From Candidatus Sungiibacteriota bacterium (GTDB lineage: Bacteria > Patescibacteriota > Minisyncoccia > Sungbacterales > JACQCQ01): a stretch of DNA of 42,835 nucleotides. A model generated the notes under the pieces. The model searched no databases, was not told the origin of the DNA, and saw only the letters and a program-made list of their open reading frames with translations. The stretch spans positions 1 through 42,835 of the forward strand of contig JACQCQ010000008.1 in assembly GCA_016201505.1 (NCBI GenBank). Reading direction: 5' to 3'. Numbering within the stretch: the first letter of the stretch is position 1; each line of letters starts with the position of its first letter. The translations under genes were made by a program, and so were the position numbers. Positions 18,022 through 42,835 of the stretch are shown here, piece by piece.

Positions 18022-18603
18022 ATCTTTTACATCGTTATGGCCGCCCCGCACTTTTATTAGCTTTTGAGCTAATAAAAGTGCGGGGAGGAAAGTCCGAACA
18101 CTTGACTCTTACATGAGTTGTCGTGATAGCGGCTAACGGCCGCCCCGAGTCGTGCATGGCATGGAAATTCGAAATTCGAAACCCTAAATTCTAAACAAAT
18201 TCGAAAACTCAAAACTTCGAAATTCAAAACGTTTAGGATTTAGCAATTAGGATTTAGGATTTGCGCGCTGTGCGCGGCCAAAGGTGAAAAGTAATCCGCG
18301 AAGGATTTCTCGTGATTGGTAACAGTCACGAGTGGAAAACCCTATCTAGTGCAAGGACAAACACCGTGCATGGCGCGGAAATTCGAGATTCGAACCCCTA
18401 AATTCTAAACAAATTCGAAAACTCAAAACTTCGAAATTCAAAACGTTTAGGATTTAGAAATTAGGATTTAGTGTTTCCGCGCCGTGCGCGGTGACAAGTA
18501 GTCCGCTCGACCCCGAGAGTAATCGAGGGGCTAGACAGATGGCCATACCGGCAAATGAAAATTTTGCCGAGAACAGAATTCGGCTTATGAATGTAACAAG
18601 ATA
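18022..18603 (+). ncRNA. rnpB: RNase P RNA with two ~126-nt hairpin insertions
   Basis: GAGGAAAGTCCGAAC near 18085 and AACAGAATTCGGCTTAT near 18572 (P4); P2 TATGGCC/GGCCATA; long P3 hairpin; ends approximate. Confidence 0.9.
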
Positions 18604-23772: not shown

Positions 23773-24570
23773 TTATCTCAAATACCCGACTTGCTTTAAC
23801 CAATAGTCATTCTCCCACTCCCAAAGAGTTTTGGCGGCGAGAAAGGCCTTGGCGTCGCGGTAATAATAGGGAAACTCTTTTAGTTCGATATCCCCTTCCG
23901 GCCCATTAAACTCATGCTCCGCTTCCGGACAGGGCTTCACTGCATTTCGTCTGCCATTTCTGATTTTGGACCTTCCGCCTTTTTCGCGAAGCTTGGCGCC
24001 ACATTTTTTGCAGACCGAATGCTGATTGATACGCAAGATCCAGCGCGTTTCTACGGCCCGAGTAAGCCCCAGGGCTTTTTTCATCTGATACTCTTGCAAG
24101 GCCTGAATGTAGGCCGCAGTCTGCAAATTATATTCGGGATAAAATCCGGGCGAGGTTTTTATATCCAGCACGCCGAACTTCCCATCAATGATGCAAAGCG
24201 CATCGACAGTCCCCGCATAGCGGTGTGACCTGGACCAAATTTGTTTTTCAATATACTCGGGAATAAATTCCATCTTCCGTTCTTCGTTAAATTGCATAAG
24301 TGTTTCCAGGGCGGCGGCAAATTCGGGCGGGATCTCGACAGCTGCACCGGTTAAAAGTTTTTGGGCAGTTTCATGAATCAGCGAGCCTTCTTCGGCTGAT
24401 TTATTCTTTACCTCTTCGGCTGATTCATACGAGCCCATCTCGCGAAAAAATGAATCGAGCGCAGGCTTTGATTTAATATCCAAAATCTTGGTAACCCGCG
24501 GATACCAAACCCCGTCAATGTGATATCCCATCTCCTCTTTAAATTTATTGCCGTCAGAAAACCATCCCAT
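23773..24570 (-). CDS. PD-(D/E)XK nuclease superfamily protein
   Basis: YPRVT.IL, GS.IH, YAGTVD, LDIKTS, QTAAY; C-terminal CxxC..C..H. Confidence 0.8.
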   Translation of the reverse strand: MGWFSDGNKFKEEMGYHIDGVWYPRVTKILDIKSKPALDSFFREMGSYESAEEVKNKSAEEGSLIHETAQKLLTGAAVEIPPEFAAALETLMQFNEERKMEFIPEYIEKQIWSRSHRYAGTVDALCIIDGKFGVLDIKTSPGFYPEYNLQTAAYIQALQEYQMKKALGLTRAVETRWILRINQHSVCKKCGAKLREKGGRSKIRNGRRNAVKPCPEAEHEFNGPEGDIELKEFPYYYRDAKAFLAAKTLWEWENDYWLKQVGYLR

Positions 24571-24767
24571 TAGAAAATTAATCAGTTTAACTTTGGTAAT
24601 GCTTACACGTATATTCAGTATAGCAGTTTACTAACATATTCCTTATCATTTTAATTTTCTAACGGGATAATCCCGTTAGAAAATTAATCAGTTTAACTTT
24701 GGTAATGCTTACACGTATATTCAGTATAGCAGTTTACTAACATATTCCTTATCATTTTAATTTTCTA
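24566..24767. repeat. Tandem pair of CCC(A/G)TTAGA elements (101 bp plus a truncated copy)
   Basis: 24566-24666 and 24672-24767 are near-identical; TIR CCCRTTAGAAAATTAA / TTAATTTTCTAACGGG. Confidence 0.9.
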
Positions 24768-24918
24768 GAGTTCAAACGGACCTCGCTTATTCGTGTAGCT
24801 ACCTTTACTACCCCTATTGTGCTGGTTGAGGCGTTTCCGCAAGTCGGCAGTGAACCCGGTATAGAATCTGTTTGATTTTAAGCTTCTCAGTACATAGACA
24901 TAGAACATAGATAGGTCT

Positions 24919-26076
24919 CTAATGGGACCGCCTTTCAAGCGCCCTGATCCCCGCTAGCGTCCCGTTGGCCGCGAGCTCGAGCAACGCCCCGCCCGCGGTT
25001 GAAATATAAATCCCCGGGTTTCTAATATGCTCACGCGCCAAGACACCGGAGAGATCCCCGCCGCCTAAAATGATTTCCGCCCTGGATGACCGAAGGGCCC
25101 TGGCGGCGCGCGCGGTCCCCTCATTGGTTTTTTGAAGCTCCATATACCCCAAGGGGCCATTCCAAAGAATGGTTTTCGATTTTTTTATTTCGCTCACCAA
25201 AAATTCGGTTGCCGCGCCGCCGACCTCAACAATGTATTCATTTTTTTGGACCTGGGTAATTTTTTTATTTTTGGGAGCCGCACGTGAGGCCAGGCTCGGC
25301 AGTGTCTTTACATCTCGGGGCAAATATATCCCTTTGACGCGCAACAATTTTTTTGCGATTGAAAGAGAATCTTTATCATAGATCGACTTACCGATTTCAT
25401 AGCCTTTGGCTGCTAAAAAAGTATTAAGCATCGCCCCGCCGATAAATATAAAATTTGACCTTCGGGCTAGGGCTTCGATGTAGGCGATTTTTGTGCTGAC
25501 TTTGGCGCCACCTATGATTACCAGAAATGGTTTCTTGGGATTCTTGAAGCTTTTTCCCAAGTGCGTAACTTCTTTTATAAAATCAATGCCCGCATAGGCC
25601 GGCAGCAACTGCGGAAGCTGAACGATTGAGGCCGCATTTCGATGCGACACGGAGAAGGCCTCGTTTACATACACATCGCCCCAACGGGCAATGGATCGCG
25701 CAAATTTTGCCTCATTTTTCTGTTCGCCCGGCCAAAAACGCAGATTTTCGGAAAATAAAATGGGAGTTGAATGGCTATCGGGATTTTCTTTTACCGGATC
25801 GGAAACGAAGCCGATCTTTTTGCCGAGTAATTTTTCCAGCCGACTTACAATCGGTCGGATTGACATTCGAGTATCACGGCCCTTCGGCTCGCCTAAATGA
25901 GCAATGATAAAAAGCCGGCCGCGATGGGCTAAAACCCATTTGATCGTGGGCAGTGCCGCCTGGATGCGAAAATCGTCGAGAATCTTTCCTCGAACCAGCG
26001 GCACATTCATATCCACCCGAAGAATCACGCGTTTTCCCTCAAAATTTCTGACAGTCTCAATAGTTCGAATTTTCAT
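24919..26076 (-). CDS. pgk: Phosphoglycerate kinase
   Basis: RVDMNVP, HLGEP, ENLRF, GGAKVSTK, WNGPLG, STAGGA.LE. Confidence 0.95.
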   Translation of the reverse strand: MKIRTIETVRNFEGKRVILRVDMNVPLVRGKILDDFRIQAALPTIKWVLAHRGRLFIIAHLGEPKGRDTRMSIRPIVSRLEKLLGKKIGFVSDPVKENPDSHSTPILFSENLRFWPGEQKNEAKFARSIARWGDVYVNEAFSVSHRNAASIVQLPQLLPAYAGIDFIKEVTHLGKSFKNPKKPFLVIIGGAKVSTKIAYIEALARRSNFIFIGGAMLNTFLAAKGYEIGKSIYDKDSLSIAKKLLRVKGIYLPRDVKTLPSLASRAAPKNKKITQVQKNEYIVEVGGAATEFLVSEIKKSKTILWNGPLGYMELQKTNEGTARAARALRSSRAEIILGGGDLSGVLAREHIRNPGIYISTAGGALLELAANGTLAGIRALERRSH

Positions 26077-27398: not shown

Positions 27399-28161
27399 TA
27401 ATCTTTGCAAAATCGTCTTTTAAGGATGCACCGCCAACTAGAACACCCTGAACTTCGCCGGAGGTTTCGCGAATGAACGAGGCCACGTTTGTCGAAGTGA
27501 TCGATCCGCCGTATAAAACTCTGGCGTGCGAGACACTGCCCTCGCCATGCATTTCGGCCAAAACTTTTCGTATATAAATTGCGGCTTTATGCATACTCTC
27601 CGGCGTGTCCGGCTTTCCCGTCCCGATCGCCCAAACCGGCTCATACGCCACGACGAGAGACTCAATAAACATTCCGGAAATTCCTTGGGTCGCCTTTTTT
27701 AATTGATCGCCAACAATTTCTGGGATATCATCGCCCATTCGTTCTTTTTCACCGATGCACAGTATCGGATGCAGCCCAGTCTCAAATGCGCGCTGTAACT
27801 TTTTATTTACCATCTCGTCCGTCTCGCCGAGAAGTCGCCTACGCTCTGAATGACCAATGATGACATACGAAACGCCGAGTTCCTTTTCCATCGGCCCCGA
27901 AACTTCGCCGGTATAGGCGCCGTCTCGCTCCCAGAAAAGATCCTGCGCGCCAAGATGAACCGCGGCCTCACTGCGCATCTCAAGATCATGAATTCCCCAC
28001 CTGCGCTCGATGGCCGATAAAAACGGGAAGGGCGGACAAACCACGACCTCAACATTTCTGGCAGATTTGGCGGCGTTCAAAGTCGTGGAAAATAAATCCA
28101 GAGCTTCCCCCTCCGTCCCCGGATTCATTTTCCAGTTAGCAACCGCGAGGTATTTTTTCAT
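27370..28161 (-). CDS. tpiA: Triosephosphate isomerase
   Basis: ANWKMN, GHSERR, AYEPVWAIGTG, YGGS, LVGGASL. Confidence 0.97.
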   Translation of the reverse strand: MKKYLAVANWKMNPGTEGEALDLFSTTLNAAKSARNVEVVVCPPFPFLSAIERRWGIHDLEMRSEAAVHLGAQDLFWERDGAYTGEVSGPMEKELGVSYVIIGHSERRRLLGETDEMVNKKLQRAFETGLHPILCIGEKERMGDDIPEIVGDQLKKATQGISGMFIESLVVAYEPVWAIGTGKPDTPESMHKAAIYIRKVLAEMHGEGSVSHARVLYGGSITSTNVASFIRETSGEVQGVLVGGASLKDDFAKIISSLEEIES

Positions 28162-28261
28162 CCCATTAGAGAATTAATTAATAACTTCATTGCACGTTTA
28201 ATGTTTTTATGGCTGCGAATCTCATTTTCGAGATACGGCTTCTGGTTAATTCTCTAATGGG
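28162..28261. repeat. CCCATTAGA element (100 bp) at the galT/tpiA junction
   Basis: CCCATTAGAGAATTAA / TTAATTCTCTAATGGG, a perfect 16-bp TIR. Confidence 0.9.
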
Positions 28262-28266
28262 ACAAA

Positions 28267-29304
28267 CTAGCTGACTTTAACCGAGCGCAAAAATTCGGCG
28301 GCCGATTCGGGTGTAATGGTCGAGATTTCAATGCCGGTGGCAAACTCAAATCCAGCCAGCGTACTTGTTATCGGCAAAATCTCGAGATGCCAATGATAGT
28401 GCGAGTATCCCGAAGCGGATTTCGCCGGTGCGGTATGAATAAAGAAGTTGTGTGACGGATCGTTTAGGCCTTTATCGAGTTTGGCGAGGGACACCCGCAA
28501 GGCCTCGGCAAAGGGCGTTATTTCGTTATCGCTGATATTTTGAAATTCAGAGGCATGGAGTTTGGGAAAAATCCGCACCTCAAATGAGGTATGCGAAGCA
28601 AAGGGCGCAAATGCCACAAATAAATCATTTTCAAAAATAATACGGTGTCTTTCTTGCAATTCAAACTCAATGATTACGCAATGAATGCATTTTTTATTCT
28701 CGCGAAAGTATCGTTCGGAACCGGCCAGCGAGCGCAACAGTTCAGGCGAGACAACAGGAATGGCGATTAACTGTGAATGCGGATGCGTAATGGAAGCTCC
28801 CGAATGCGGGCCATGGTTATGGATAATAGAAACGTATTCAACGCATTCTTCAAACGACAACGTGCTCATCCGTTCGCGATAGCTACGAATTACGAGGGCG
28901 GCTTCGTCATTTGTCATCTGGGCAATCGACTTATGATGATCGCGGGATACGATAACTTCGTGAAAGCCATTGCCGTCGGTAAACTTATGCGGACCCAAAG
29001 GTAAAATAACGGGGCAGATCGGGCTGGGATAAAATGCCGGAAACTTGTTGGGGATCACCTCGATAAACCAATCGGCTGCGGCGGGGCTATCAAAATCAGT
29101 TACGATTTCTCCCTTTTTTGAAATGACTAATTTGGCATCACTTTCTAATTTCTCAAAGGGACAGGTCTCGATATTGTTCGTTGGCTTTTCTTCTTTCGAG
29201 ACAAAATCATTTGGGCGCCGGGCGCGGCCCGTCGCAATCACCACCCATTCGCCGGTCACAACATCCTGGCGCAGTTCAGTTAATTTTTTTCCAGCATCAA
29301 GCAT
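28267..29304 (-). CDS. galT: Galactose-1-phosphate uridylyltransferase family protein
   Basis: RARRP, CPF, NKFPA, GASITHPHSQ, YHWHLEI. Confidence 0.9.
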   Translation of the reverse strand: MLDAGKKLTELRQDVVTGEWVVIATGRARRPNDFVSKEEKPTNNIETCPFEKLESDAKLVISKKGEIVTDFDSPAAADWFIEVIPNKFPAFYPSPICPVILPLGPHKFTDGNGFHEVIVSRDHHKSIAQMTNDEAALVIRSYRERMSTLSFEECVEYVSIIHNHGPHSGASITHPHSQLIAIPVVSPELLRSLAGSERYFRENKKCIHCVIIEFELQERHRIIFENDLFVAFAPFASHTSFEVRIFPKLHASEFQNISDNEITPFAEALRVSLAKLDKGLNDPSHNFFIHTAPAKSASGYSHYHWHLEILPITSTLAGFEFATGIEISTITPESAAEFLRSVKVS

Positions 29305-29587
29305 ACCGGGTAGTATAAATTTGGCTATTTTTTTGATTATAGCAGAATTCTTTCAACATACGCTTTAATAGTCTAGCGCCCTGACTCGTTTTTAAATAGT
29401 GCCCTCTTCGCTTCGCATCTGATTCATTCAAATAGGCTTCGTAATGAATCAAATGCCAGGGCGCGTAAGGCTCGGTAGACTTATTCTTTTTGGAATTATG
29501 TTCCACGATTCTTTTTCTTAAATCTTTTGTGTAACCAACGTAGAGTCCATTCGCTCTATTTTGTAAAAGATAGATATAGTGGAACAT
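29297..29587 (-). CDS. GIY-YIG nuclease family protein
   Basis: YIYLL..LYVGYTKDLRKRIVEHN..ST..PW.LIHYEAY. Confidence 0.9.
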   Translation of the reverse strand: MFHYIYLLQNRANGLYVGYTKDLRKRIVEHNSKKNKSTEPYAPWHLIHYEAYLNESDAKRRGHYLKTSQGARLLKRMLKEFCYNQKNSQIYTTRYA

Positions 29588-29619
29588 AATTCACAGCCAA
29601 ATTTTCACTACCTGGCATA
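29302..29619 (-). mobile_element. Inverted-repeat-flanked GIY-YIG cassette with TATG duplication
   Basis: 25-bp imperfect IRs at 29302-29326 and 29595-29619 (20/25 identical). Confidence 0.75.
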
Positions 29620-30198
29620 GGTTCCTTTTAGATCATTCCATTTAATGATTAAAAGTTCGCGGAAGGTTGAAACATAGGCAGAAAGGCCGACTTTAGAGCC
29701 CGGCGGATTGTGCCAAATAACTGGGACTTCTTTAATTTTTAAGCCAGATTTTTCACCTACTATTAATAACTCTGAGTCGAAAAACCATGCTTTATCTTCA
29801 ACAAGCGGCAACAGCTCATCGATGACCGCGCCCGCGAGTTCAATTGAACCAATCACCAGATCATAGCCTTGCTGTAAATAGGGTTCCATTTTGCCGAAAT
29901 GATCGGGCGCGGTTGAGTTGTCGGCATCAGAAAATAACCGAACCGCACCCCCGGCTTTTAGCATTCCATCAAGAACGGCACCGCCCTTGCCCGCATCATT
30001 TGCCTCAAGAATGGAAAGCTCGCGAATTTCCTTCATCAAGCGCTCAACAATTTCTCGCGTTCGATCGCCCGAATGGCTGTCTACGACAATGATTTCATAT
30101 TCAATAGCGCGTCCGGAAAGATAGGCGTTAACTTCCCGAATCGATTTTTCAATATTTCGTTCCTCATTTTTTGACGGAATAATCCAGGAGAGATACAT
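29608..30198 (-). CDS. GT2 glycosyltransferase (Dol-P-glucosyltransferase-like), apparently internally deleted
   Basis: IIPSKNEE, VVDSHSGD, GKGGAV, FSDADNS, FDSELL; the DTQCGFK segment is missing. Confidence 0.75.
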   Translation of the reverse strand: MYLSWIIPSKNEERNIEKSIREVNAYLSGRAIEYEIIVVDSHSGDRTREIVERLMKEIRELSILEANDAGKGGAVLDGMLKAGGAVRLFSDADNSTAPDHFGKMEPYLQQGYDLVIGSIELAGAVIDELLPLVEDKAWFFDSELLIVGEKSGLKIKEVPVIWHNPPGSKVGLSAYVSTFRELLIIKWNDLKGTYAR

Positions 30199-36891: not shown

Positions 36892-37083
36892 GCCTTTGAT
36901 GTCTAAATTTGTAAAGTCCCTGCTGTAGCAAATGTAGCCGCGGCCAAGAGCACCCAGCCAAGTTTTTCAGCGGCTGTATGCCCACCTTGAAATAGCAAGT
37001 TATCATAGCTGAAAAACTTGGGCGGGTAAAGGTTTTGTGACATAATTTTTTTCATAGTCAGGCAAAAATTCTGACAAAGCCCT
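36892..37083 (-). repeat. CCCGCCCAA hairpin element filling the rplR/rpsE junction
   Basis: GGGCTTTGTCAGAATT...CCCGCCCAAGTTTTTCAGC-loop-GCTGAAAAACTTGG. Confidence 0.85.
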
Positions 37084-37455
37084 TTAAAATGCTAGTCCAG
37101 CTTTACGCGCCGCATCGGCTAAGGCTTTAATCCGACCATGATATTTATATCCGCCGCGATCAAACACAACCGCTTTTATCTTTTTCTCCAAAGCTTTTTT
37201 AGCAATCTCGGCGCCGACATAGGTTGCTCGTTCGATCGGGGTTGGTTTCTTCTTTCCCCCTGCTCTTTTCATTGCGTCATGGGCTGAAACAATGGTTTTC
37301 CCTACCGCGTCATCAATAATTTGAGCATACATATGCTTCCCAGAGCGGAAAATTGAAAGACGGGGCAGAGTTCGGCTCACAGCGCGAAGTTTGAAGCGGG
37401 TCCTTCGCGCGCGCGTTTTTTGCTGTATTCGTTTTCGTGATGAAGTAAGTCCCAT
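37084..37455 (-). CDS. rplR: 50S ribosomal protein L18
   Basis: [25 protein letters not shown]. Confidence 0.96.
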
Positions 37456-37460
37456 ATGAG

Positions 37461-37588
37461 TTAAACCCTAAATCCGAAATTCAAAATACGAAACAAATTC
37501 AAAGCTCCAAACTCGAAACGTTTTTGATTTTGGACTTTTATGATTTTCATATTTGTTTAGGATTTAGGATTTCGTGCTTTGGGTTTTT
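37461..37588. repeat. Heptamer-repeat hairpin insert at the rplF/rplR junction
   Basis: AAACCCTAAATCCGAAAT ... TTTAGGATTTAGGATTTCG; same family as the rnpB and lepA inserts. Confidence 0.85.
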
Positions 37589-37589
37589 A

Positions 37590-38135
37590 CTACGCAGCGC
37601 CCGTTGAGGCTTTCTTACCGGCTTTGCGGCGGATCGTCTCGCCCAGGTAATGAATCCCTTTGCCTTTATAGGGCTCGGGCTTTTTAAGGCTCCTGATTTT
37701 GGCAGCCGTCTCGCCGACCGCATCTTTACTGAAACCAGAAACCGTAATCACGTTTTTTTCTACTTTAAATTGAATCCCGTCGGGCGCATCAAACATAACC
37801 GGATGCGAAAATCCAAGCGCGAAAACTAAATTCTTGCCTTCCAAATTTACTCGATATCCCACACCCTCCAACTCCAATTTTTTTTCAAATCCTTTCAAGA
37901 CTCCTTCAATCGAGTGAGCCAGAATCGCGCGCGTTAGGCCCCAGAAAGCCTGAGTCTTTTTAGTTTTTTGTGCCGGGTTAATGAGGATCTGATTGTCTTT
38001 CACTGCCACTTTAATTTCCGGCCGGATGTGTCGAACAATCTCGCCTTTGGGGCCTTTCATTTTTACTTCGTCACCAGAAAGCGTGACGGTGACACCTCCG
38101 GGGACTGAGATCGGTTGTTTTCCAATGCGGCTCAT
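37590..38135 (-). CDS. rplF: 50S ribosomal protein L6
   Basis: MSRIGK, PEPYKGKGI. Confidence 0.97.
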   Translation of the reverse strand: MSRIGKQPISVPGGVTVTLSGDEVKMKGPKGEIVRHIRPEIKVAVKDNQILINPAQKTKKTQAFWGLTRAILAHSIEGVLKGFEKKLELEGVGYRVNLEGKNLVFALGFSHPVMFDAPDGIQFKVEKNVITVSGFSKDAVGETAAKIRSLKKPEPYKGKGIHYLGETIRRKAGKKASTGAA

Positions 38136-38526
38136 GCCAATTTTGTTGAAATTATTGAGTAAGGATGCCCGAACGAAAAGAATTGCGCTACAAAACTGAG
38201 CACCCGCCCAAGTTTTTCAACTGATGTGCATACCATTAATTTCGTATTTCTTGTTCGCATTTTCATTTCTTGATTCATAGTCTTGAAAAATTTGGGCGGG
38301 TAAAGGTTTTGTTGCATCATTTTTTTCATAGTCATTCAAAAATTCTGACAAAGCCCTTACCCCGCCCCAATCTAAACGACGTTCGACCGAACCATCAAGA
38401 TTATGAGCCGTCAGACGGCTTCGCCTTCCGTTATCATTTACCCCATCGTTCATGGTTGAGATTGGGGCGGGGTAAGGTTTTGGTATAAAATTTTGTTCGC
38501 TTCGCTCCATAATTCTAACAAAGCCC
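38136..38526 (-). repeat. Two tandem CCCGCCC(C)AA hairpin elements at the rpsH/rplF junction
   Basis: TAAGGGCTTTGT occurs at both about 38529 and 38359; two GC stems. Confidence 0.85.
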
Positions 38527-38925
38527 TTACCAAATTTCTGCTATAATTTCTCCGCCTAATTTTTTCTTTTTGGCTTCATCATTTGAGAGAACCCCGGCGG
38601 AAGTTGAAATCACCGCGATGCCATGGCCGTACTTTACCGGCCTAATTTCAGAGGCTTTGACATAGAGGCGGCGCGAGGGTTTTGAGATTCTGCGTCCTCC
38701 AGCGAATGCCGGAGTCCCATCTTTATACTTCAGTGATATCTCCATGAACTTTCGCGCTTTCTTTCCCTTCTTTTCAATGCCGGCAATATAGCCTTTCCGC
38801 TCTAAGACCTTGGCAATGGATTCTTTTACATTGGAATGCGGAACAACCACCGCCTCTTTCTTGGCCCGGTAGCCATTCTGTATTCGTATGATCATATCCC
38901 CGATGGGATCAGTTATGACTGACAT
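38527..38925 (-). CDS. rpsH: 30S ribosomal protein S8
   Basis: DPIGDMIIRI.N, ISKPSRR.Y, GGEII. Confidence 0.97.
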   Translation of the reverse strand: MSVITDPIGDMIIRIQNGYRAKKEAVVVPHSNVKESIAKVLERKGYIAGIEKKGKKARKFMEISLKYKDGTPAFAGGRRISKPSRRLYVKASEIRPVKYGHGIAVISTSAGVLSNDEAKKKKLGGEIIAEIW

Positions 38926-39157
38926 ATGCCAGTGCTCTCTAAATTTTAGAGTGATTTAACGAATAAAATTTAGTTGAGTCACTGAGCACCCCGCCCCAAT
39001 CTAAACGACGTCCAGCCGAACTGTCGGGGCTGTAAGCCGCCAGGCGGCTTCGCTGTAGATTGTCTGTGGTTTGGTAATTCATGGTTGAGATTGGGGCGGG
39101 GGAAGGTTTTGGCATAAATTTTGTTCGCTGTCGTGCTCCATAATTTAGACCAAGCCC
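38926..39157 (-). repeat. CCCGCCCCAA hairpin element at the rpsN/rpsH junction
   Basis: Homologous to 38357-38526. Confidence 0.85.
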
Positions 39158-39343
39158 TTACCAGGAAGATTTTTTAACTCCGGGAATTTCGCCGCGATTT
39201 GCGAGTTCCCGAAAACAAATCCGGCATAAATCAAAATCGCGCATATAGCCGTGCTTCCGTCCGCAGCGGAAACAGCGCCTGACTTTGCGGGATGAAAATT
39301 TCGGCTTCTTTTTGGACCTGGCGATAACTGAAGTTTTTGCCAT
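39158..39343 (-). CDS. rpsN: 30S ribosomal protein S14 (Zn-binding type Z)
   Basis: [24 protein letters not shown]. Confidence 0.96.
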
Positions 39344-39352
39344 CTTTTTGCT

Positions 39353-39413
39353 TATCGACTACTGACCACGGACTACCGCACAACTGTATGCCGTAGTCTG
39401 TAGTCAGTAGATA
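39353..39413. repeat. Heptamer hairpin at the rplE/rpsN junction
   Basis: CTACTGACCACGGACTAC ... GTAGTCTGTAGTCAGTAG. Confidence 0.75.
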
Positions 39414-39416
39414 CAG

Positions 39417-39953
39417 TTATGTCTGAATGGGAAAGCCTAAACTGCGAAGGAGCGACATGCCTTCTTCTTTTGTTCTGGCAGTTGTGACAATTGTAACTTC
39501 CAAGCCAAAAATAAATCGGACGTCTTCACCGATCATTTCCGGAAAAACAATATGCTCTTTGACGCCAATCGTCAAGTTGCCGCGGCCGTCAAAGGCCGTT
39601 GCCGGAATACCCTTAAAATCGCGTGTTCGGGGAAGAGCAATACCCACCAGTCTATCCAAAAATTCATACATGCGTGCCCCGCGTAGCGTCACCGAGTAGC
39701 CGATGATCTGCCCCAGGCGCGTCTTAAATGAGGCGATGGCCTTTTTAGCCCGGCGCGGTACCGCGTGCTGCCCCGTAATGGCGGACAAGGATTTTTGTAC
39801 AATCTCACGCTGCTTTTCATCGACGATACGGCCCACGCCGGAGTTTACAACTACTTTTATAATTTTCGGCACCGCCAAAATATTCGAGTATTCGAACTCT
39901 TTTTTTAGTGCCGGTATGGCTTCCTTTTGGTATCGTTCTTTTATAACTGACAT
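39417..39953 (-). CDS. rplE: 50S ribosomal protein L5
   Basis: VTLRG.RMYEFLDRL, RDFKG, FDGRGN. Confidence 0.97.
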   Translation of the reverse strand: MSVIKERYQKEAIPALKKEFEYSNILAVPKIIKVVVNSGVGRIVDEKQREIVQKSLSAITGQHAVPRRAKKAIASFKTRLGQIIGYSVTLRGARMYEFLDRLVGIALPRTRDFKGIPATAFDGRGNLTIGVKEHIVFPEMIGEDVRFIFGLEVTIVTTARTKEEGMSLLRSLGFPIQT

Positions 39954-40336
39954 GTCAGTGTGCTTAAAATTATTGAGTGAGTGAAGCGAACGAAAAGAAT
40001 TTCGCTACAAAAGTGAGCACCCCGCCCAAGTTTTTCAGCGGCCGTATGCTCACATTGAAACAGCACATCATCATGGCTGAAAAATTTGGGCGGGTAAAGG
40101 TTTGGTGTGCCGCATGAGGCGCAAACGACCATAGCGGCCGAGGCGGAAAATGAGGCAGGAATCTCAACAACCTCACCGCGTTTTCCTTCCTGCCGCGGGC
40201 GGATATGCTTTTTCTTTATATTGATGCCTTCGGCCAGCAGTCTCGCCTCCTTCGGCCAGACATGCAAAACCTTCGCGGTTTTGCCGCGATCTTTGCCGGC
40301 CATGATCTGAATCGTGTCGCCCTTTTTGATTTTCAT
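39941..40336 (-). CDS. rplX: 50S ribosomal protein L24, C-terminus replaced by repeat sequence from about 40103
   Basis: MKIKKGD..AGKDRGK; after CASCG the frame reads into the repeat (NLYPPKFF). Confidence 0.85.
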   Translation of the reverse strand: MKIKKGDTIQIMAGKDRGKTAKVLHVWPKEARLLAEGINIKKKHIRPRQEGKRGEVVEIPASFSASAAMVVCASCGTPNLYPPKFFSHDDVLFQCEHTAAEKLGRGAHFCSEILFVRFTHSIILSTLTCQL

Positions 40337-40473
40337 GCCAATTTTGTCGAAATTATTGAGTGAGTGAAGCGAACGAAAAGAATTTCGCTACAAAAGTGAG
40401 CACCCCGCCCAAGTTTTTCAGCGGCCGTATGCTCACATTGAAACAGCACATCATCATGGCTGAAAAATTTGGG
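40337..40473 (-). repeat. CCCGCCCAA element (partial), identical to 42699-42835
   Basis: 137-nt identity by eye. Confidence 0.9.
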
Positions 40474-40690
40474 CTTTGCGGCGATAGGAATTTCTCTGCC
40501 GGACAATCACCGCGCGGACCACATCTTTTTTCTTTACCTGCTTTCTGGGTTCTGCAATTTTAACCGAAGCCACGATAATATCCCCCAGCTGGGCGTATCG
40601 CCGTCTCGTTCCGCCCAGCACTTTAATGACCTGGAGCAGTTTGGCTCCAGAATTATCGGCGACTTGTAACATGGATCGCGGCTGAATCAT
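40454..40690 (-). pseudogene. rplN: 50S ribosomal protein L14, truncated at a repeat (likely assembly artefact)
   Basis: [19 protein letters not shown]; lacks the C-terminal ~50 aa (IRFD..RIFGPV). Confidence 0.85.
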
Positions 40691-40831
40691 ACCTAGTGTT
40701 ATAACTTCGGAAGGCCACTTGAGGCGACCAGCTGAAACCGATAGTTATCCTTTCGACTTTTTATCTTTATTCTGTACGTATTCTTTTCCATGATTGATAT
40801 TCTGCATCCGAAGTTATAACGACCGGGCATA
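40688..40831 (-). repeat. 144-bp TATG-flanked inverted-repeat element at the rpsQ/rplN junction
   Basis: GTTATAACTTCGGA / TCCGAAGTTATAAC; homologous to 41300-41443. Confidence 0.9.
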
Positions 40832-40834
40832 TAA

Positions 40835-41110
40835 TTATTCTTCTTCAGTAACGGCTGTATTTCCTTTTGATTCAAGGACTTCTACGACTTTCCAGCGTTT
40901 ATCTTTGGACAGGGGCCTGGTTTCCTGAATCTTGACCACATCGCCAACTTTAAGCGAGTTATCTTCATCATGCACCTTAAATTTGGTCGAACGCTTTTCG
41001 TATTTTAAATACTTAGGATTTTTTTTGAGGCGCGAAACCAAAACCACCGCAGTTTTCTGCATTTTGTTTGAAGCCACCGTGCCTTCTAATGTTCGGGGAT
41101 GCTTTTCCAT
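40835..41110 (-). CDS. rpsQ: 30S ribosomal protein S17
   Basis: [20 protein letters not shown]. Confidence 0.96.
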
Positions 41111-41119
41111 ATTACTGTA

Positions 41120-41302
41120 TTACTGTTCTCGAATAACGGTCAGAATTCTCGCGATATCTTTTTTGACTCCGGCAAGCGACTTTACGTTCTTTACTTTTTT
41201 TCGTTCAGTATCAAATCGCAGGGTCTCGACTTTGGCGCGAAGATCAAGCAGCTTGTTGGTTAACTCATCTTTTGTTTTTTTCCGCAGTTCAATGGCTTTC
41301 AT
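41120..41302 (-). CDS. rpmC: 50S ribosomal protein L29
   Basis: ELRKK..EL, KKDIARILT; operon position. Confidence 0.93.
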   Translation of the reverse strand: MKAIELRKKTKDELTNKLLDLRAKVETLRFDTERKKVKNVKSLAGVKKDIARILTVIREQ

Positions 41303-41443
41303 ACCCGGTGTTACAATTTCGGAAGGTCGCTCGGTGCGACCACCTGAAACCGATGGTTATCCTTTCGACTTTTTATCTTTATTCTGTGCGTATTCTTTTC
41401 CATGATTGATATTCTGCATCCGAAGTTATAACGACCGGGCATA
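41300..41443 (-). repeat. 144-bp TATG-flanked inverted-repeat element at the rplP/rpmC junction
   Basis: TATGCCCGGTCGTTATAACTTCGGA ... TCCGAAATTGTAACACCGGGTATG. Confidence 0.9.
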
Positions 41444-41839
41444 GACAAATCTCGTCTTCATGGGTAATTTGTGAGCCGCGCGCTCGAGCGCTTGCTCGGC
41501 CACTTCTTTCGTAACTCCATCCATCTCAAACAAAATCCTGCCGGGTTTTACCGGATAAACATAAAACTCGACACCGCCTTTGCCGCCGCCCATGGTTACC
41601 TCCGGTGGGCGTCTCGTGATCGGCTTATCGGGAAATACACGAATCCAGACTTTACCGCCGCGCTGAATATAGTGCGTGATGGCGCGACGTGCGGCTTCAA
41701 TTTGGCGCGCCGTAATCCAGCGTCGCTCAAGAGCTTTTAATCCGTAACTGCCATAGGCGAGTGCCGTCCCTCGAGTCTCAACGCCGGGAGAACGCATTTT
41801 TTGCCACTTTCTGTGTTTTACTTTTTTAGGCTGCAACAT
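41426..41839 (-). CDS. rplP: 50S ribosomal protein L16
   Basis: [30 protein letters not shown]. Confidence 0.97.
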
Positions 41840-41841
41840 AA

Positions 41842-42027
41842 TTATTCGCCATTCGTCGTTTGAAAATCGTTCACTCGCCCCGGCGCGGCTCGCTCACTCA
41901 CGTCCGCGCTCGCTCTTTTGCCTCGCAAAATCCAAGCCCGCGAGCACTCCCAAGTGTTTTCAAACAAGAATGTCTCACCGGAGGCTTTCTGAATGTAGCC
42001 CTTCGGGCTTTGATTCACATTAATCAT
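41842..42027 (-). other. Hairpin insert and 61-codon bridging ORF at the rpsC/rplP junction
   Basis: GTTTGAAAA...TTTTCAAAC stem with GCTCGCTC repeats; the ORF overlaps the rpsC stop and ends 2 nt before rplP. Confidence 0.6.
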
Positions 42028-42698
42028 ACATTTTTCTTTTCTTCAAAAATCTGGCCCTTATAAATCCAGACTTTGATGCCAATGACGCCGTAGGTGGTAT
42101 ACGCCTCTTTTTGAGCATAATCAATATGAGCACGCAGCGTCTGCAAGGGGATACGCCCCTTTTTAATCCATTCATAGCGAGCCATTTCCGAACCATCAAG
42201 CCGCCCCGAGATGGCAATTTTTACGCCTTCCACACCTTTGGACTGGATTACTTTTTCGGAGGTTTGTTTTAGAACGCGACGAAAAGGCAGACGTTTTTCA
42301 AGATCATCGGCGATCATCTGACCGACAATTGCCGCATGCGCTTCAGGCGTTTTTACCTCCTCGACGGTAAGTTTTAAGTCGCGCTTGTCAGCGGCCGCAT
42401 TTTTATTTATGCCGCTAATTTTTTTAGCAATTTCTTGTTTTAATTTTTCAGCCCACTCTCCCCCGCGGCCGATCAAAATTCCGGGACGTGAAGTCCGGAT
42501 GATGATATTCATGGTCGTGGGCGACCGTTCAATTTCGATGGCATCGATGTGTGCCGCTCTTAATTTTTTCCGCAGCCACTCGCGAACAACCGTGTCTTCG
42601 CGTAAATAATCTTTATATTTTTTTTCATTAAACCAGCGCGACTTCCAGGTCGTGTTAATGCCTAATCTGAAAATGTAGGGGTGGACTCGGTGGGTCAT
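42024..42698 (-). CDS. rpsC: 30S ribosomal protein S3
   Basis: VHPYIFRLG..W.SRWF, RPGILIGRGG, GRIPLQTLR, GIKVWI. Confidence 0.97.
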   Translation of the reverse strand: MTHRVHPYIFRLGINTTWKSRWFNEKKYKDYLREDTVVREWLRKKLRAAHIDAIEIERSPTTMNIIIRTSRPGILIGRGGEWAEKLKQEIAKKISGINKNAAADKRDLKLTVEEVKTPEAHAAIVGQMIADDLEKRLPFRRVLKQTSEKVIQSKGVEGVKIAISGRLDGSEMARYEWIKKGRIPLQTLRAHIDYAQKEAYTTYGVIGIKVWIYKGQIFEEKKNV

Positions 42699-42835
42699 GC
42701 CAATTTTGTCGAAATTATTGAGTGAGTGAAGCGAACGAAAAGAATTTCGCTACAAAAGTGAGCACCCCGCCCAAGTTTTTCAGCGGCCGTATGCTCACAT
42801 TGAAACAGCACATCATCATGGCTGAAAAATTTGGG
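42699..42835 (-). repeat. CCCGCCCAA element upstream of rpsC (runs off the window)
   Basis: Ends ...CGACAAAATTGGC directly before the rpsC ATG. Confidence 0.9.

Follow-up and report, generated by a model that had tools for sequence, protein, structure and literature searches.

The 42,835-nucleotide (nt) stretch of Candidatus Sungiibacteriota DNA analysed here (contig JACQCQ010000008.1 of assembly GCA_016201505.1; hereafter, the window) carries three genes that lie head to tail on the minus strand: one for a family-2 glycosyltransferase (GT2), one for a GIY-YIG nuclease of 96 amino acids (aa) and one that resembles galT. The intact nuclease gene is enclosed in a unit of 310 base pairs (bp) at 29306-29615 (-), which has 21-nt terminal inverted repeats and TATG at both flanks. 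Here we describe this unit, its relatives in the Patescibacteria—cassettes with the gene and elements without it—and the evidence that bears on how they may move.

A nuclease gene between inverted repeats

On the gene strand, the unit reads TATG, a 21-nt arm that begins CCAGG, 7 nt, the open reading frame (ORF), a mirror arm that ends CCCGG, and TATG again (Table 1). The final ten codons of the nuclease ORF run through the right arm and its TATG, and the stop codon is a TGA in host sequence. The left arm carries the tandem stops TAG-TGA in the reading frame of GT2, and the GT2 ORF stops at the TAG (29608-29610). An inverted-repeat finder placed the arms at 29303-29326 and 29595-29618 (24 nt, 83% complementary, spacing of 268 nt). 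When the flanks were locally aligned, the observed score was matched by none of 200 shuffles, and the 25-nt arm has a single occurrence in the window with up to 3 mismatches allowed (0 expected). An earlier reading of this DNA, made from the sequence only, had reported a nuclease gene bracketed by inverted repeats, TATG at both ends and a new GT2 stop supplied by the left repeat. All of these are present, and the stop has counterparts in many other copies. The 5′ arm of an internal 17-nt inverted repeat overlies the nuclease start codon and could limit translation of the nuclease. A nested second stem was considered as a family-wide feature and ruled out, as a further internal repeat was found in only 9 of the 70 cassettes described below.

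Table 1 Features of the unit, its host genes and related elements in the window
Feature	Position	Strand	Basis
Left direct repeat TATG; old galT start codon and preceding T	29616..29619	-	Same TATG flanks class-B and class-C elements elsewhere
Left terminal inverted repeat CCAGGTAGTGAAAATTTGGCT	29595..29615	-	Inverted-repeat finding; canonical arm in 28/41 close homologs
GIY-YIG nuclease gene, 96 aa, intact	29297..29587	-	ORF; PF01541 match
Right terminal inverted repeat (gene-strand sequence AGCCAAATTTATACTACCCGG)	29306..29326	-	Inverted-repeat finding; shuffle test
Right direct repeat TATG, with the current galT start codon at 29302-29304	29302..29305	-	Sequence reading
Internal 17-nt inverted repeat (29576-29592 with 29493-29509, 94%)	29493..29592	-	Inverted-repeat finding
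Upstream host gene, GT2, 196 aa; stop now supplied by the element	29608..30198	-	ORF; relatives' matches
Downstream host gene, galT-like (galactose-1-phosphate uridylyltransferase / HIT family), 345 aa	28267..29304	-	ORF; profile match
ORF-less 136-bp element, CCCGG... ends, TATG on both sides, S17/L14 junction	40692..40827	-	Repeat comparison
Second ORF-less copy, 92% identical, TATG on both sides, L16/L29 junction	41304..41439	-	Repeat comparison
ORF-less 102-bp element, TCCC(A/G)TTAGA type, between galT and tpiA	28161..28262	.	Repeat census
Degenerate second GIY-YIG cassette, class-A termini TCCCGTTAGA..., ORF cut after ~47 codons	24671..24927	-	Decayed cassette in the window

We retrieved the galT loci of 60 related genomes and searched those of the 29 best relatives by tblastn. 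GT2, galT and tpiA lie in the order of the window in 26 of the 29, accompanied by ruvX in 24; in the remaining three (L028, L038 and L046) the GT2 end is cut or incomplete. None of the 29 loci has a tblastn match to GIY-YIG between GT2 and galT. Among the 26 relatives' junctions inspected, 16 have a GT2 stop that overlaps or adjoins the start region of galT, and deletion of 29306-29615 with one TATG from the window regenerates an overlapping junction, in which GT2 would end two codons past a conserved Tyr. The sequence-only reading had described a plausible coupled junction after removal of the insert and had proposed a search for empty alleles among relatives; the comparison shows an overlapping junction and relatives' loci without the gene. 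As judged from these loci, the GIY-YIG unit at the GT2–galT junction is an insertion.

The site also bears traces of earlier occupation. In a genome of the same family (G004), the 15 nt right after TATG are identical to the canonical left arm at 14 positions, and G001 and G002 have shorter, more decayed left-arm-like stretches at the same junction. Because the left arm is canonical in many unrelated genomes, we interpret the G004 stretch as a remnant of the same insertion and not as host sequence; it now encodes the last GT2 residues and the first galT residues. Given this remnant, the GT2–galT site was occupied in a common ancestor, or invaded more than once, and subsequently cleared. Arm complementarity of 83% and the remnant that the sister genome retains of the same insertion mark the window copy as old; its gene is still intact. 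That the left arm might be native host DNA, with the right arm its inverted copy, was considered and ruled out: the same arm occurs in 28 of 41 homologs of unrelated genomes.

GT2 itself varies nearby. At 29747-29813, the gene that is 196 aa long here compares with around 241 codons spanned by relatives' matches, and contigs of the same study in public data part from the window sequence at 29746 and 29814. In one of them, approximately 196 nt replace these 67 nt, which shows that the population contains a longer GT2 allele.

A family of cassettes and their ORF-less relatives

We compared the source genome (G000, 816 kilobases (kb)) with 60 relatives (G001-G060; 61 genomes in total). The source genome has 16 tblastn matches to the 96-aa protein, with 25-57% identity. 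At least one match is present in 49 of the 61 genomes, with up to 13 per genome; many have internal stops, and their positions are non-syntenic. A scan of a species-level genome collection with this single protein returned 48 loci that encode close homologs, with genome labels that include Paceibacteria, Zambryskibacteria, Portnoybacteria, Komeilibacteria, Doudnabacteria and Azambacteria, among others.

We then inspected 107 GIY-YIG places in 105 loci (16 from the source genome, 29 returned by the search and 60 chosen by E-value order, the last excluding all but one row with internal stops). A place was called flanked when its inverted repeat was reached by at most 1 of 100 shuffles. On this definition 76 places are flanked and 31 are not; 6 places (5 loci) in which both ‘arms’ are direct copies of a self-palindrome were dropped, leaving 70 (the order set). 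The sequence-only reading had proposed a survey of small GIY-YIG genes for flanking repeats, which these 70 of 107 places possess. Half of the 16 copies in the source genome have flanking inverted repeats.

The 70 flanked units are 256-433 bp in length (median, 292 bp). For the majority, about 10 nt at most separate the left arm from the ATG, and the stop codon is overlapped by the right arm. Outer ends begin with CCC and end with GGG in 56 of the 76 flanked units, and arms fall into type A (TCCCGTTAGA), type B (CCNGGTAGT; the type of the window's copy), type C (CCCGCC), type D (CCCCCAC) and type E (CCCTCCC). Class-B arms are nearly the same in 28 of 41 close homologs tested from the 48 loci of other Patescibacteria, mostly with TATG on both sides (the class-B set), which argues that the arms are termini of the element and not host sequence. 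We define the family as miniature cassettes of about 275-330 bp, with terminal repeats of 14-25 nt that start with CCC or CCNGG and one gene for a nuclease of 85-100 aa.

Overall complementarity of the arms is 95.6% in the 70 units, with 52 of 1,175 pairs mismatched. The sequence-only reading had counted three of five arm mismatches in the window as G-U pairs on the mRNA strand and took them as a hint of a single-stranded hairpin. Some mismatches are G-U, numbering two of the four in the 24-nt arms. Across the 70 family members there is no strand bias (19 G.T mismatches on the sense strand versus 14 G.U-capable ones on the antisense strand), which leaves an RNA hairpin deduced from such pairs without support across the family. 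What stands of the proposed mobile unit of around 0.3 kb at a start codon is the insertion, its repeat bounds, the TATG duplication and the ORF-less relatives; the G-U argument for a hairpin does not. That the nuclease mobilises the unit, with a hairpin as its substrate, is a mechanistic inference.

Direct repeats at the ends are more frequent than chance predicts. Allowing the arm boundary a symmetric shift of up to 4 nt, and with permuted left/right pairs as the control, we found that 26 of the 70 units of the order set carry a 4-bp direct repeat immediately next to the arms (permuted mean, 2.9; maximum, 8 in 200 trials). In the class-B set the count was 16 of 28 (permuted mean, 4.4), of which 3 are CCGG matches inside the arms and are to be discounted. 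The repeat is TATG in most class-B and some class-C units, TGAA or TGAG in class A, and TNNA in others. Flanks differ by site (TACG, AAAG and GAGG in single cases, TGGA, TTCA and others), as expected of a true target duplication.

Insertion sites are often the boundaries of genes. A host ORF on the same strand starts -3 to +12 nt from the right end in 30 of 70 units; for 22 of the 70, that end falls within the host start codon, the element supplying A or AT and the flank the remainder. Of 67 units, 18 have the stop of an upstream ORF at their left end, which in 8 of them is inside the arm. Arm types A, B and C all have a stop codon a few bases inward of the outer end. In class B, the two arms nearly always differ at two adjacent bases (TAG-TGA versus TAG-TAG, in either orientation), a pattern suggestive of selection on stops and not on pairing. 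Start codons, named as the targets in the sequence-only reading, are thus frequent sites; cassettes also occur in RNase P RNA genes, in the neighbourhood of tRNA genes and inside other repeats. Two lie within an RNase P RNA gene (L060 in G023, 1225-1876, 134.9 bits; L073 in G039, 126-648, 109.9 bits), and 6 of the 16 source-genome copies are within around 220 nt of a tRNA gene (L005, L008, L009, L011, L012 and L014).

Some details of these RNA-gene sites are recorded here as observations. In L060 and L073 the whole cassette lies in the same peripheral helix region, and its arms take the place of the helix. The arms recur, with flanks that are similar, in three further loci (L088, L093 and L101), for which there is no Rfam RNase P call at the gathering score. 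At C5:25097-25393 of the source genome, the 3′ end of a tRNA-Gln gene is apparently partly repeated downstream of the cassette. Cassettes as tRNA introns were ruled out: when 76 units were deleted in 11,780 variants, a junction-spanning tRNA arose in only 4 cases (L092, L099, L117 and L134), one of which rests on 2 variants.

Arms and genes have a shared history. A tree of 97 proteins requires 29 changes of terminal type, compared with a mean of 58 for shuffled labels, and none of 200 shuffles was as low; as kin share labels, this clustering points to a long association of arm and gene rather than to function. The protein tree does not track hosts. Cassettes of two genomes from different families (G048 and G001) have 91.7% DNA identity and 94% protein identity, and the galT proteins of these genomes are each only 51-67% identical to that of the window. 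In these two genomes (L058 and L064, respectively), cassettes break the same Zn-ribbon-like gene at the same point. By these comparisons, the repeat-bounded unit—arms and gene—is gained, lost and exchanged between genomes as a whole.

Cassettes are outnumbered several-fold by elements that lack the ORF and have matching termini and 4-bp flanks of the same kind. A census of inverted repeats in the source genome returned 197 pairs. A targeted count gave 41 ORF-less pairs of class A (TCCCGTTAGA-type), mostly of 100-115 bp. Identical 4-mers stand right outside the ends in 18 of these 41; sliding the left 4-mer outward reduced the count to 1, 0, 0 and 0. The 18 are TGAA (9, some of them shared between tandem class-A copies), TTCA (3), TGGA (2) and four others once each. 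Each of the three main terminal types of the source genome has ORF-less copies and a cassette. ORF-less elements and cassettes have only their 14-22-nt termini in common, which rules out the former as internal-deletion derivatives of the latter.

ORF-less copies of class B and class C occur as well, among them the two 136-bp elements in the ribosomal-protein operon of the window. Both of these read TATG, CCCGG ... CCGGG, TATG on the gene strand, and the L29 start ATG falls in the right TATG of the copy at 41304-41439. These are the nuclease-less ‘144-bp’ elements whose ends the sequence-only reading had likened to those of the cassette, and the likeness in layout is confirmed. In the class-A element between galT and tpiA, the terminal A together with the flanking TG forms the tpiA ATG. 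Removal of that element and one TG leaves TTG at the tpiA start position; the insertion may have converted a TTG start to ATG.

Smaller and decayed forms are also present. Elements of 62-74 bp with class-A ends and two inner hairpins occur at G000:C2:6477-6544 and at 21 places in 11 other genomes; the search used a gap of 40-70 nt, too short for the ~100-bp elements, so that it describes a subtype in 12 of 61 genomes and is not a census of class A. Their hairpin stems vary between genomes yet remain paired, which suggests selection on a three-way-junction fold, in RNA or single-stranded DNA. At 24564-24927 of the window, two tandem class-A copies of about 103 bp (99% alike) adjoin a truncated GIY-YIG ORF (24765-24905), and this decayed cassette retains its class-A right-hand terminus at 24927.

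The window has further repeats. The RNase P RNA gene at 18024-18603 (+) is 580 nt in length, against a model of 367 positions (96.8 bits; gathering score, 100), and holds two 127-nt hairpin-forming repeats that are 93% alike, at 18151-18277 (P12) and 18365-18491 (P15-17). Across the ribosomal-protein operon (36900-42835), short repeats are dense between genes and extend into them. The L14 gene (40454-40690) is open for only 78 codons before it enters a 141-nt repeat (40333-40473), an identical copy of which forms the end of the contig (42695-42835); the shortening of L14 may be due to a collapsed assembly rather than to a truncated gene.

The nuclease and the movement of the unit

The 96-aa protein matches the Pfam model PF01541 (GIY-YIG) with 52.2 bits (cut-off, 22.6; E = 7.7e-14). 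Residues Y6, Y16, G18, R26, H30, E50 and R61 (numbering of the window protein) are invariant in all 52 intact flanked copies, a set that includes the catalytic Tyr, Tyr, Arg, His and Glu of the GIY-YIG superfamily. Ratios of dN/dS were 0.06, 0.09 and 0.08 in three of nine pairs, with dS saturated in the others, and indicate strong purifying selection on the nuclease. A sequence search of solved structures returned only the UPF0213 proteins 1ZG2 (E = 3.7e-6) and 1YWL (E = 4.3e-4). The AlphaFold model (mean pLDDT, 88) has a beta-beta-alpha-beta-alpha core, to which 1ZG2 (UPF0213 BH0048) was the closest match by Foldseek, followed by Slx1 entries (root-mean-square deviation of about 2 Å) and plant HIGLE; UvrC and I-TevI rank below UPF0213 and Slx1. 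Sequence matches and the predicted fold together assign the nuclease to a UPF0213/Slx1-like clade. Slx1 and plant HIGLE cut branched DNA. Modelled as a homodimer, the protein scored 0.74 compared with 0.08 for the best control; runs agreed in at least 92% of contacts, and the partner pLDDT was at least 77. Of proteins with solved structures, 20 of 30 pairs and 1 of 23 single chains reach the same mark, and the pass of this nuclease may reflect likeness to solved Slx1 homodimers. Among PADLOC defence-system models, the best match had an E value of only 0.0075.

UPF0213 proteins are single resident genes in many bacteria. The gene in the window could be a resident housekeeping gene of this kind, the flanking repeat being a regulatory or terminator-like hairpin, and the divergence of its arms to 83% and the lack of an empty allele in public contigs would fit. 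We give this account next to no credence: the gene is missing at this site in all 29 relatives, copies number up to 13 per genome at non-syntenic positions and often have internal stops, target duplications are present, and near-identical cassettes occur in different families.

If the unit is mobile, an enzyme has to move it, and its only ORF is the GIY-YIG nuclease. The sequence-only reading had spoken of a unit with no transposase, which is accurate for the unit and not for the genome, where three contigs of 1.9-3.1 kb carry, respectively, a gene matching DDE_Tnp_1, a weak rve-like hit and a gene of Y1 type. None of the terminal motifs occurs on these DDE, rve-like or Y1 (C4) contigs. The screen of the source genome used PF01609, PF13358, PF00665, PF01797 and PF07282, and gave no match to the DDE_3 and TnpB-type models. 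Two families were screened across relatives: neither DDE_Tnp_1 nor Y1_Tnp was found in G001, G006, G014 and G021 (98-100% complete), all of which have flanked cassettes. Y1_Tnp-like ORFs, where present, are around 220-290 aa in length, with up to 5 per genome, and for most of them the match to the Pfam model is confined to its C-terminal two-thirds. Y1/HUH transposition produces no target duplication. As cassette genomes can lack both families and Y1 enzymes make no duplication, the GIY-YIG nuclease is, on this screen of few families, the best candidate for the mobilising enzyme.

We propose that the cassette could be self-mobilising, the encoded nuclease moving its own repeat-bounded unit, and we hold the case for this to be evenly balanced. 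The nuclease, probably as a homodimer, would recognize the paired or symmetric ends, and its staggered cuts would both free and insert the element; ORF-less relatives would be moved in trans, and host repair and ligation would complete the insertion. Comparison of the copies shows that the unit prefers the stop/start junctions of tightly packed genes, at which the left arm provides stops for the gene before it, the right end and the duplicated target restore the start codon of the next gene, and the stop of the nuclease gene lies on or beside that restored start. With a stop supplied by the arm and a restored start, the cassette fits as an extra cistron between two host genes. More tentatively, and with rather less than even confidence, we suggest that the cassettes form a new class of autonomous prokaryotic DNA transposon. 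This class would be the smallest known (~0.3 kb), with an 85-100-aa Slx1/UPF0213-type GIY-YIG nuclease that acts on its own ends as the sole protein; it would make 4-bp duplications, fit harmlessly into stop/start junctions and RNA-gene helices, and be the parent of the abundant miniature repeats of Patescibacteria.

Several observations weigh against self-mobilisation. The contigs of four groundwater runs from one study contain only the filled allele, with no empty or excised allele and no joints. No 4-bp repeat was found in 44 of the 70 cassettes. The GIY-YIG copies of the source genome are at most 57% identical in protein, and thus give no sign of recent copying of cassettes within the genome. 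GIY-YIG enzymes are hydrolytic nucleases; we know of none that joins DNA, and of no precedent for such a transposon, so host ligation or repair must be assumed. The predicted dimer interface takes in the catalytic E50. A Slx1 homodimer with a blocked active site is reported in the available part of PMC7017083, and the dimer modelled here might be an inactive form of that type. About 25 of the 70 cassettes (our count) are at a few sites that recur in different genomes, among them the RNase P RNA helix, one point in the Zn-ribbon-like gene and one point in another repeat, which is the pattern expected from homing. At the Zn-ribbon site, the 9 and 11 nt that adjoin the element are identical and the farther flanks have diverged, which looks like a co-conversion tract. 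Finally, transposase genes are not scarce: DDE_Tnp_1 is present in 11 and Y1_Tnp in 45 of the 61 genomes, with few families screened.

A homing-type selfish gene would account for the recurrent sites. The nuclease would cut empty sites, and repair of the break would copy the cassette from a filled one; the 4-bp ‘duplications’ would then be micro-homologies of repair, and the inverted repeats would serve as insulation through their stops, the rebuilt start and a stem that is tolerated or processed in RNA. Distant genomes do share filled sites, in the RNase P RNA helix (L060 and L073) and in the Zn-ribbon-like gene (G048 and G001, with their closely similar cassettes and identical adjoining nucleotides). 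Each type has near-uniform flanks, TATG making up 9 of the 16 repeats of the class-B set and TGAA or TGAG 10 of the 26 of the order set. GIY-YIG is a classic homing-endonuclease fold, with I-TevI among the fold matches. GIY-YIG ORFs in non-intron inserts of rRNA genes of the candidate phyla radiation (CPR), which the available part of PMC11270868 describes, point the same way. Profile search and model, however, show no DNA-binding domain in the 96-aa protein, which scores 18.5 bits with the TIGR01453 intron-endonuclease model (cut-off, 56.05) and has structure-selective nucleases as its nearest folds. Most sites are non-homologous to each other and their 4-bp flanks differ, and homing fails to explain the far commoner ORF-less elements with the same ends and kind of flank. 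An Rfam scan of the window found no family beyond one tRNA at the gathering score, and hence no group I or II intron. On balance, we regard homing as unlikely, with a real minority share of the probability.

The transposase genes raise the possibility that a Y1/RAYT-like or DDE enzyme moves the elements and that the nuclease is cargo, with a role in repair, defence or addiction. Y1_Tnp-like genes are widespread and often multi-copy, DDE_Tnp_1 occurs in a minority of genomes, and the source genome has one of each and the weak rve-like hit; IS5-group DDE elements produce 4-bp duplications, and the ORF-less elements have only termini in common with cassettes. It is difficult to reconcile this idea with the four well-assembled genomes that have flanked cassettes and neither transposase family, with transposase contigs in the source genome that are devoid of terminal motifs, or, for Y1/HUH enzymes, with the presence of duplications. 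Moreover, at least four terminal types that are unrelated have arms that hug the ORF (within ~10 nt on both sides), and terminal types go with protein clades, which would not be expected from repeated capture. The catalytic residues are invariant and under strong purifying selection. We consider a passenger gene improbable. Readings other than self-mobilisation, homing, a passenger and a resident gene are left with only a slight chance.

Known systems and significance

Like insertion sequences, the cassettes have terminal inverted repeats, 4-bp duplications in a subset, empty sites and non-homologous copies. Unlike them, they encode no DDE, DEDD, HUH, serine or tyrosine recombinase, the only ORF being the GIY-YIG nuclease; to our knowledge, every accepted class of bacterial transposon uses an enzyme of one of these types. 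In our assessment the element is outside every described class of bacterial mobile element, and full-text literature searches, which covered few subscription journals, returned no description of a repeat-bounded GIY-YIG element.

The nearest functional analogue is the REPIN-RAYT system. Common to both are short hairpin-forming repeats that number in the tens, a small gene lying between repeats of the same kind, and the pairing of each repeat type with its own protein lineage. In REPIN-RAYT the enzyme is a Y1/HUH transposase and there is no target duplication, whereas here a GIY-YIG gene is multi-copy and exchanged between genomes, duplications are 4 bp and the coding unit is about 0.3 kb. GIY-YIG homing endonucleases (I-TevI and the T4 Seg proteins) have the catalytic fold and residues in common with the nuclease and, like the cassettes, are selfish insertions in or between conserved genes; some cassette sites recur across genomes. 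They differ in being more than 200 aa in length with a DNA-binding domain, as opposed to 96 aa without one; here, no intron was found, and there are terminal repeats, target duplications and ORF-less forms. The best sequence and fold matches are Slx1, At-HIGLE and UPF0213 proteins (YhbQ, YazA, BH0048 and EF2693), which have been treated as resident repair genes or genes of unknown function; Slx1 has an additional zinc-finger domain and needs Slx4, in contrast to the 96-aa nuclease. A homodimer, predicted here, is reported for Slx1 in the available part of PMC7017083. The accessible parts of the literature that names UPF0213/Slx1-type proteins contain nothing that links them to repeat-bounded mobile units.

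Bacterial MITEs (miniature transposable elements with inverted repeats; for example, Correia elements) and the smallest insertion sequences (the IS200/IS605 group, ~0.7 kb) are characterized by terminal repeats, short duplications, positions at gene boundaries and effects on the expression of neighbours. The cassettes resemble them in terminal inverted repeats, short target duplications and position at gene boundaries. MITEs depend, or presumably depend, on classical transposases, and the autonomous elements known to us are at least twice as long as the cassettes and encode DDE or HUH enzymes. Within the same bacterial group, the available part of PMC11270868 describes sparse GIY-YIG ORFs in inserts of CPR rRNA genes that are unlike group I or II introns and unexplained by homing. 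Those inserts are in rRNA genes, and that part of the source makes no mention of inverted repeats, target duplications or protein-gene junctions. They may be the same elements.

If self-mobilisation is correct, a 0.3-kb element with a plain hydrolytic nuclease would add a new class of transposition, and the size limit of an autonomous mobile element would drop by more than half; the cassettes may be the smallest self-contained mobile elements known. It would also provide a first biological role for the widespread UPF0213 family, and a tiny nuclease with a defined preference for DNA ends or structures may be of practical use. Insertion of this kind would be harmless: because the ends carry stops and rebuild a start codon, the element can sit in a packed operon without breaking it, and remnants of its ends can become coding sequence of host proteins, as in the sister genome. 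Odd non-intron inserts in RNA genes of Patescibacteria could also be due to these elements, and self-mobilisation would account for the many short palindromic repeats and the many small GIY-YIG genes of these bacteria.

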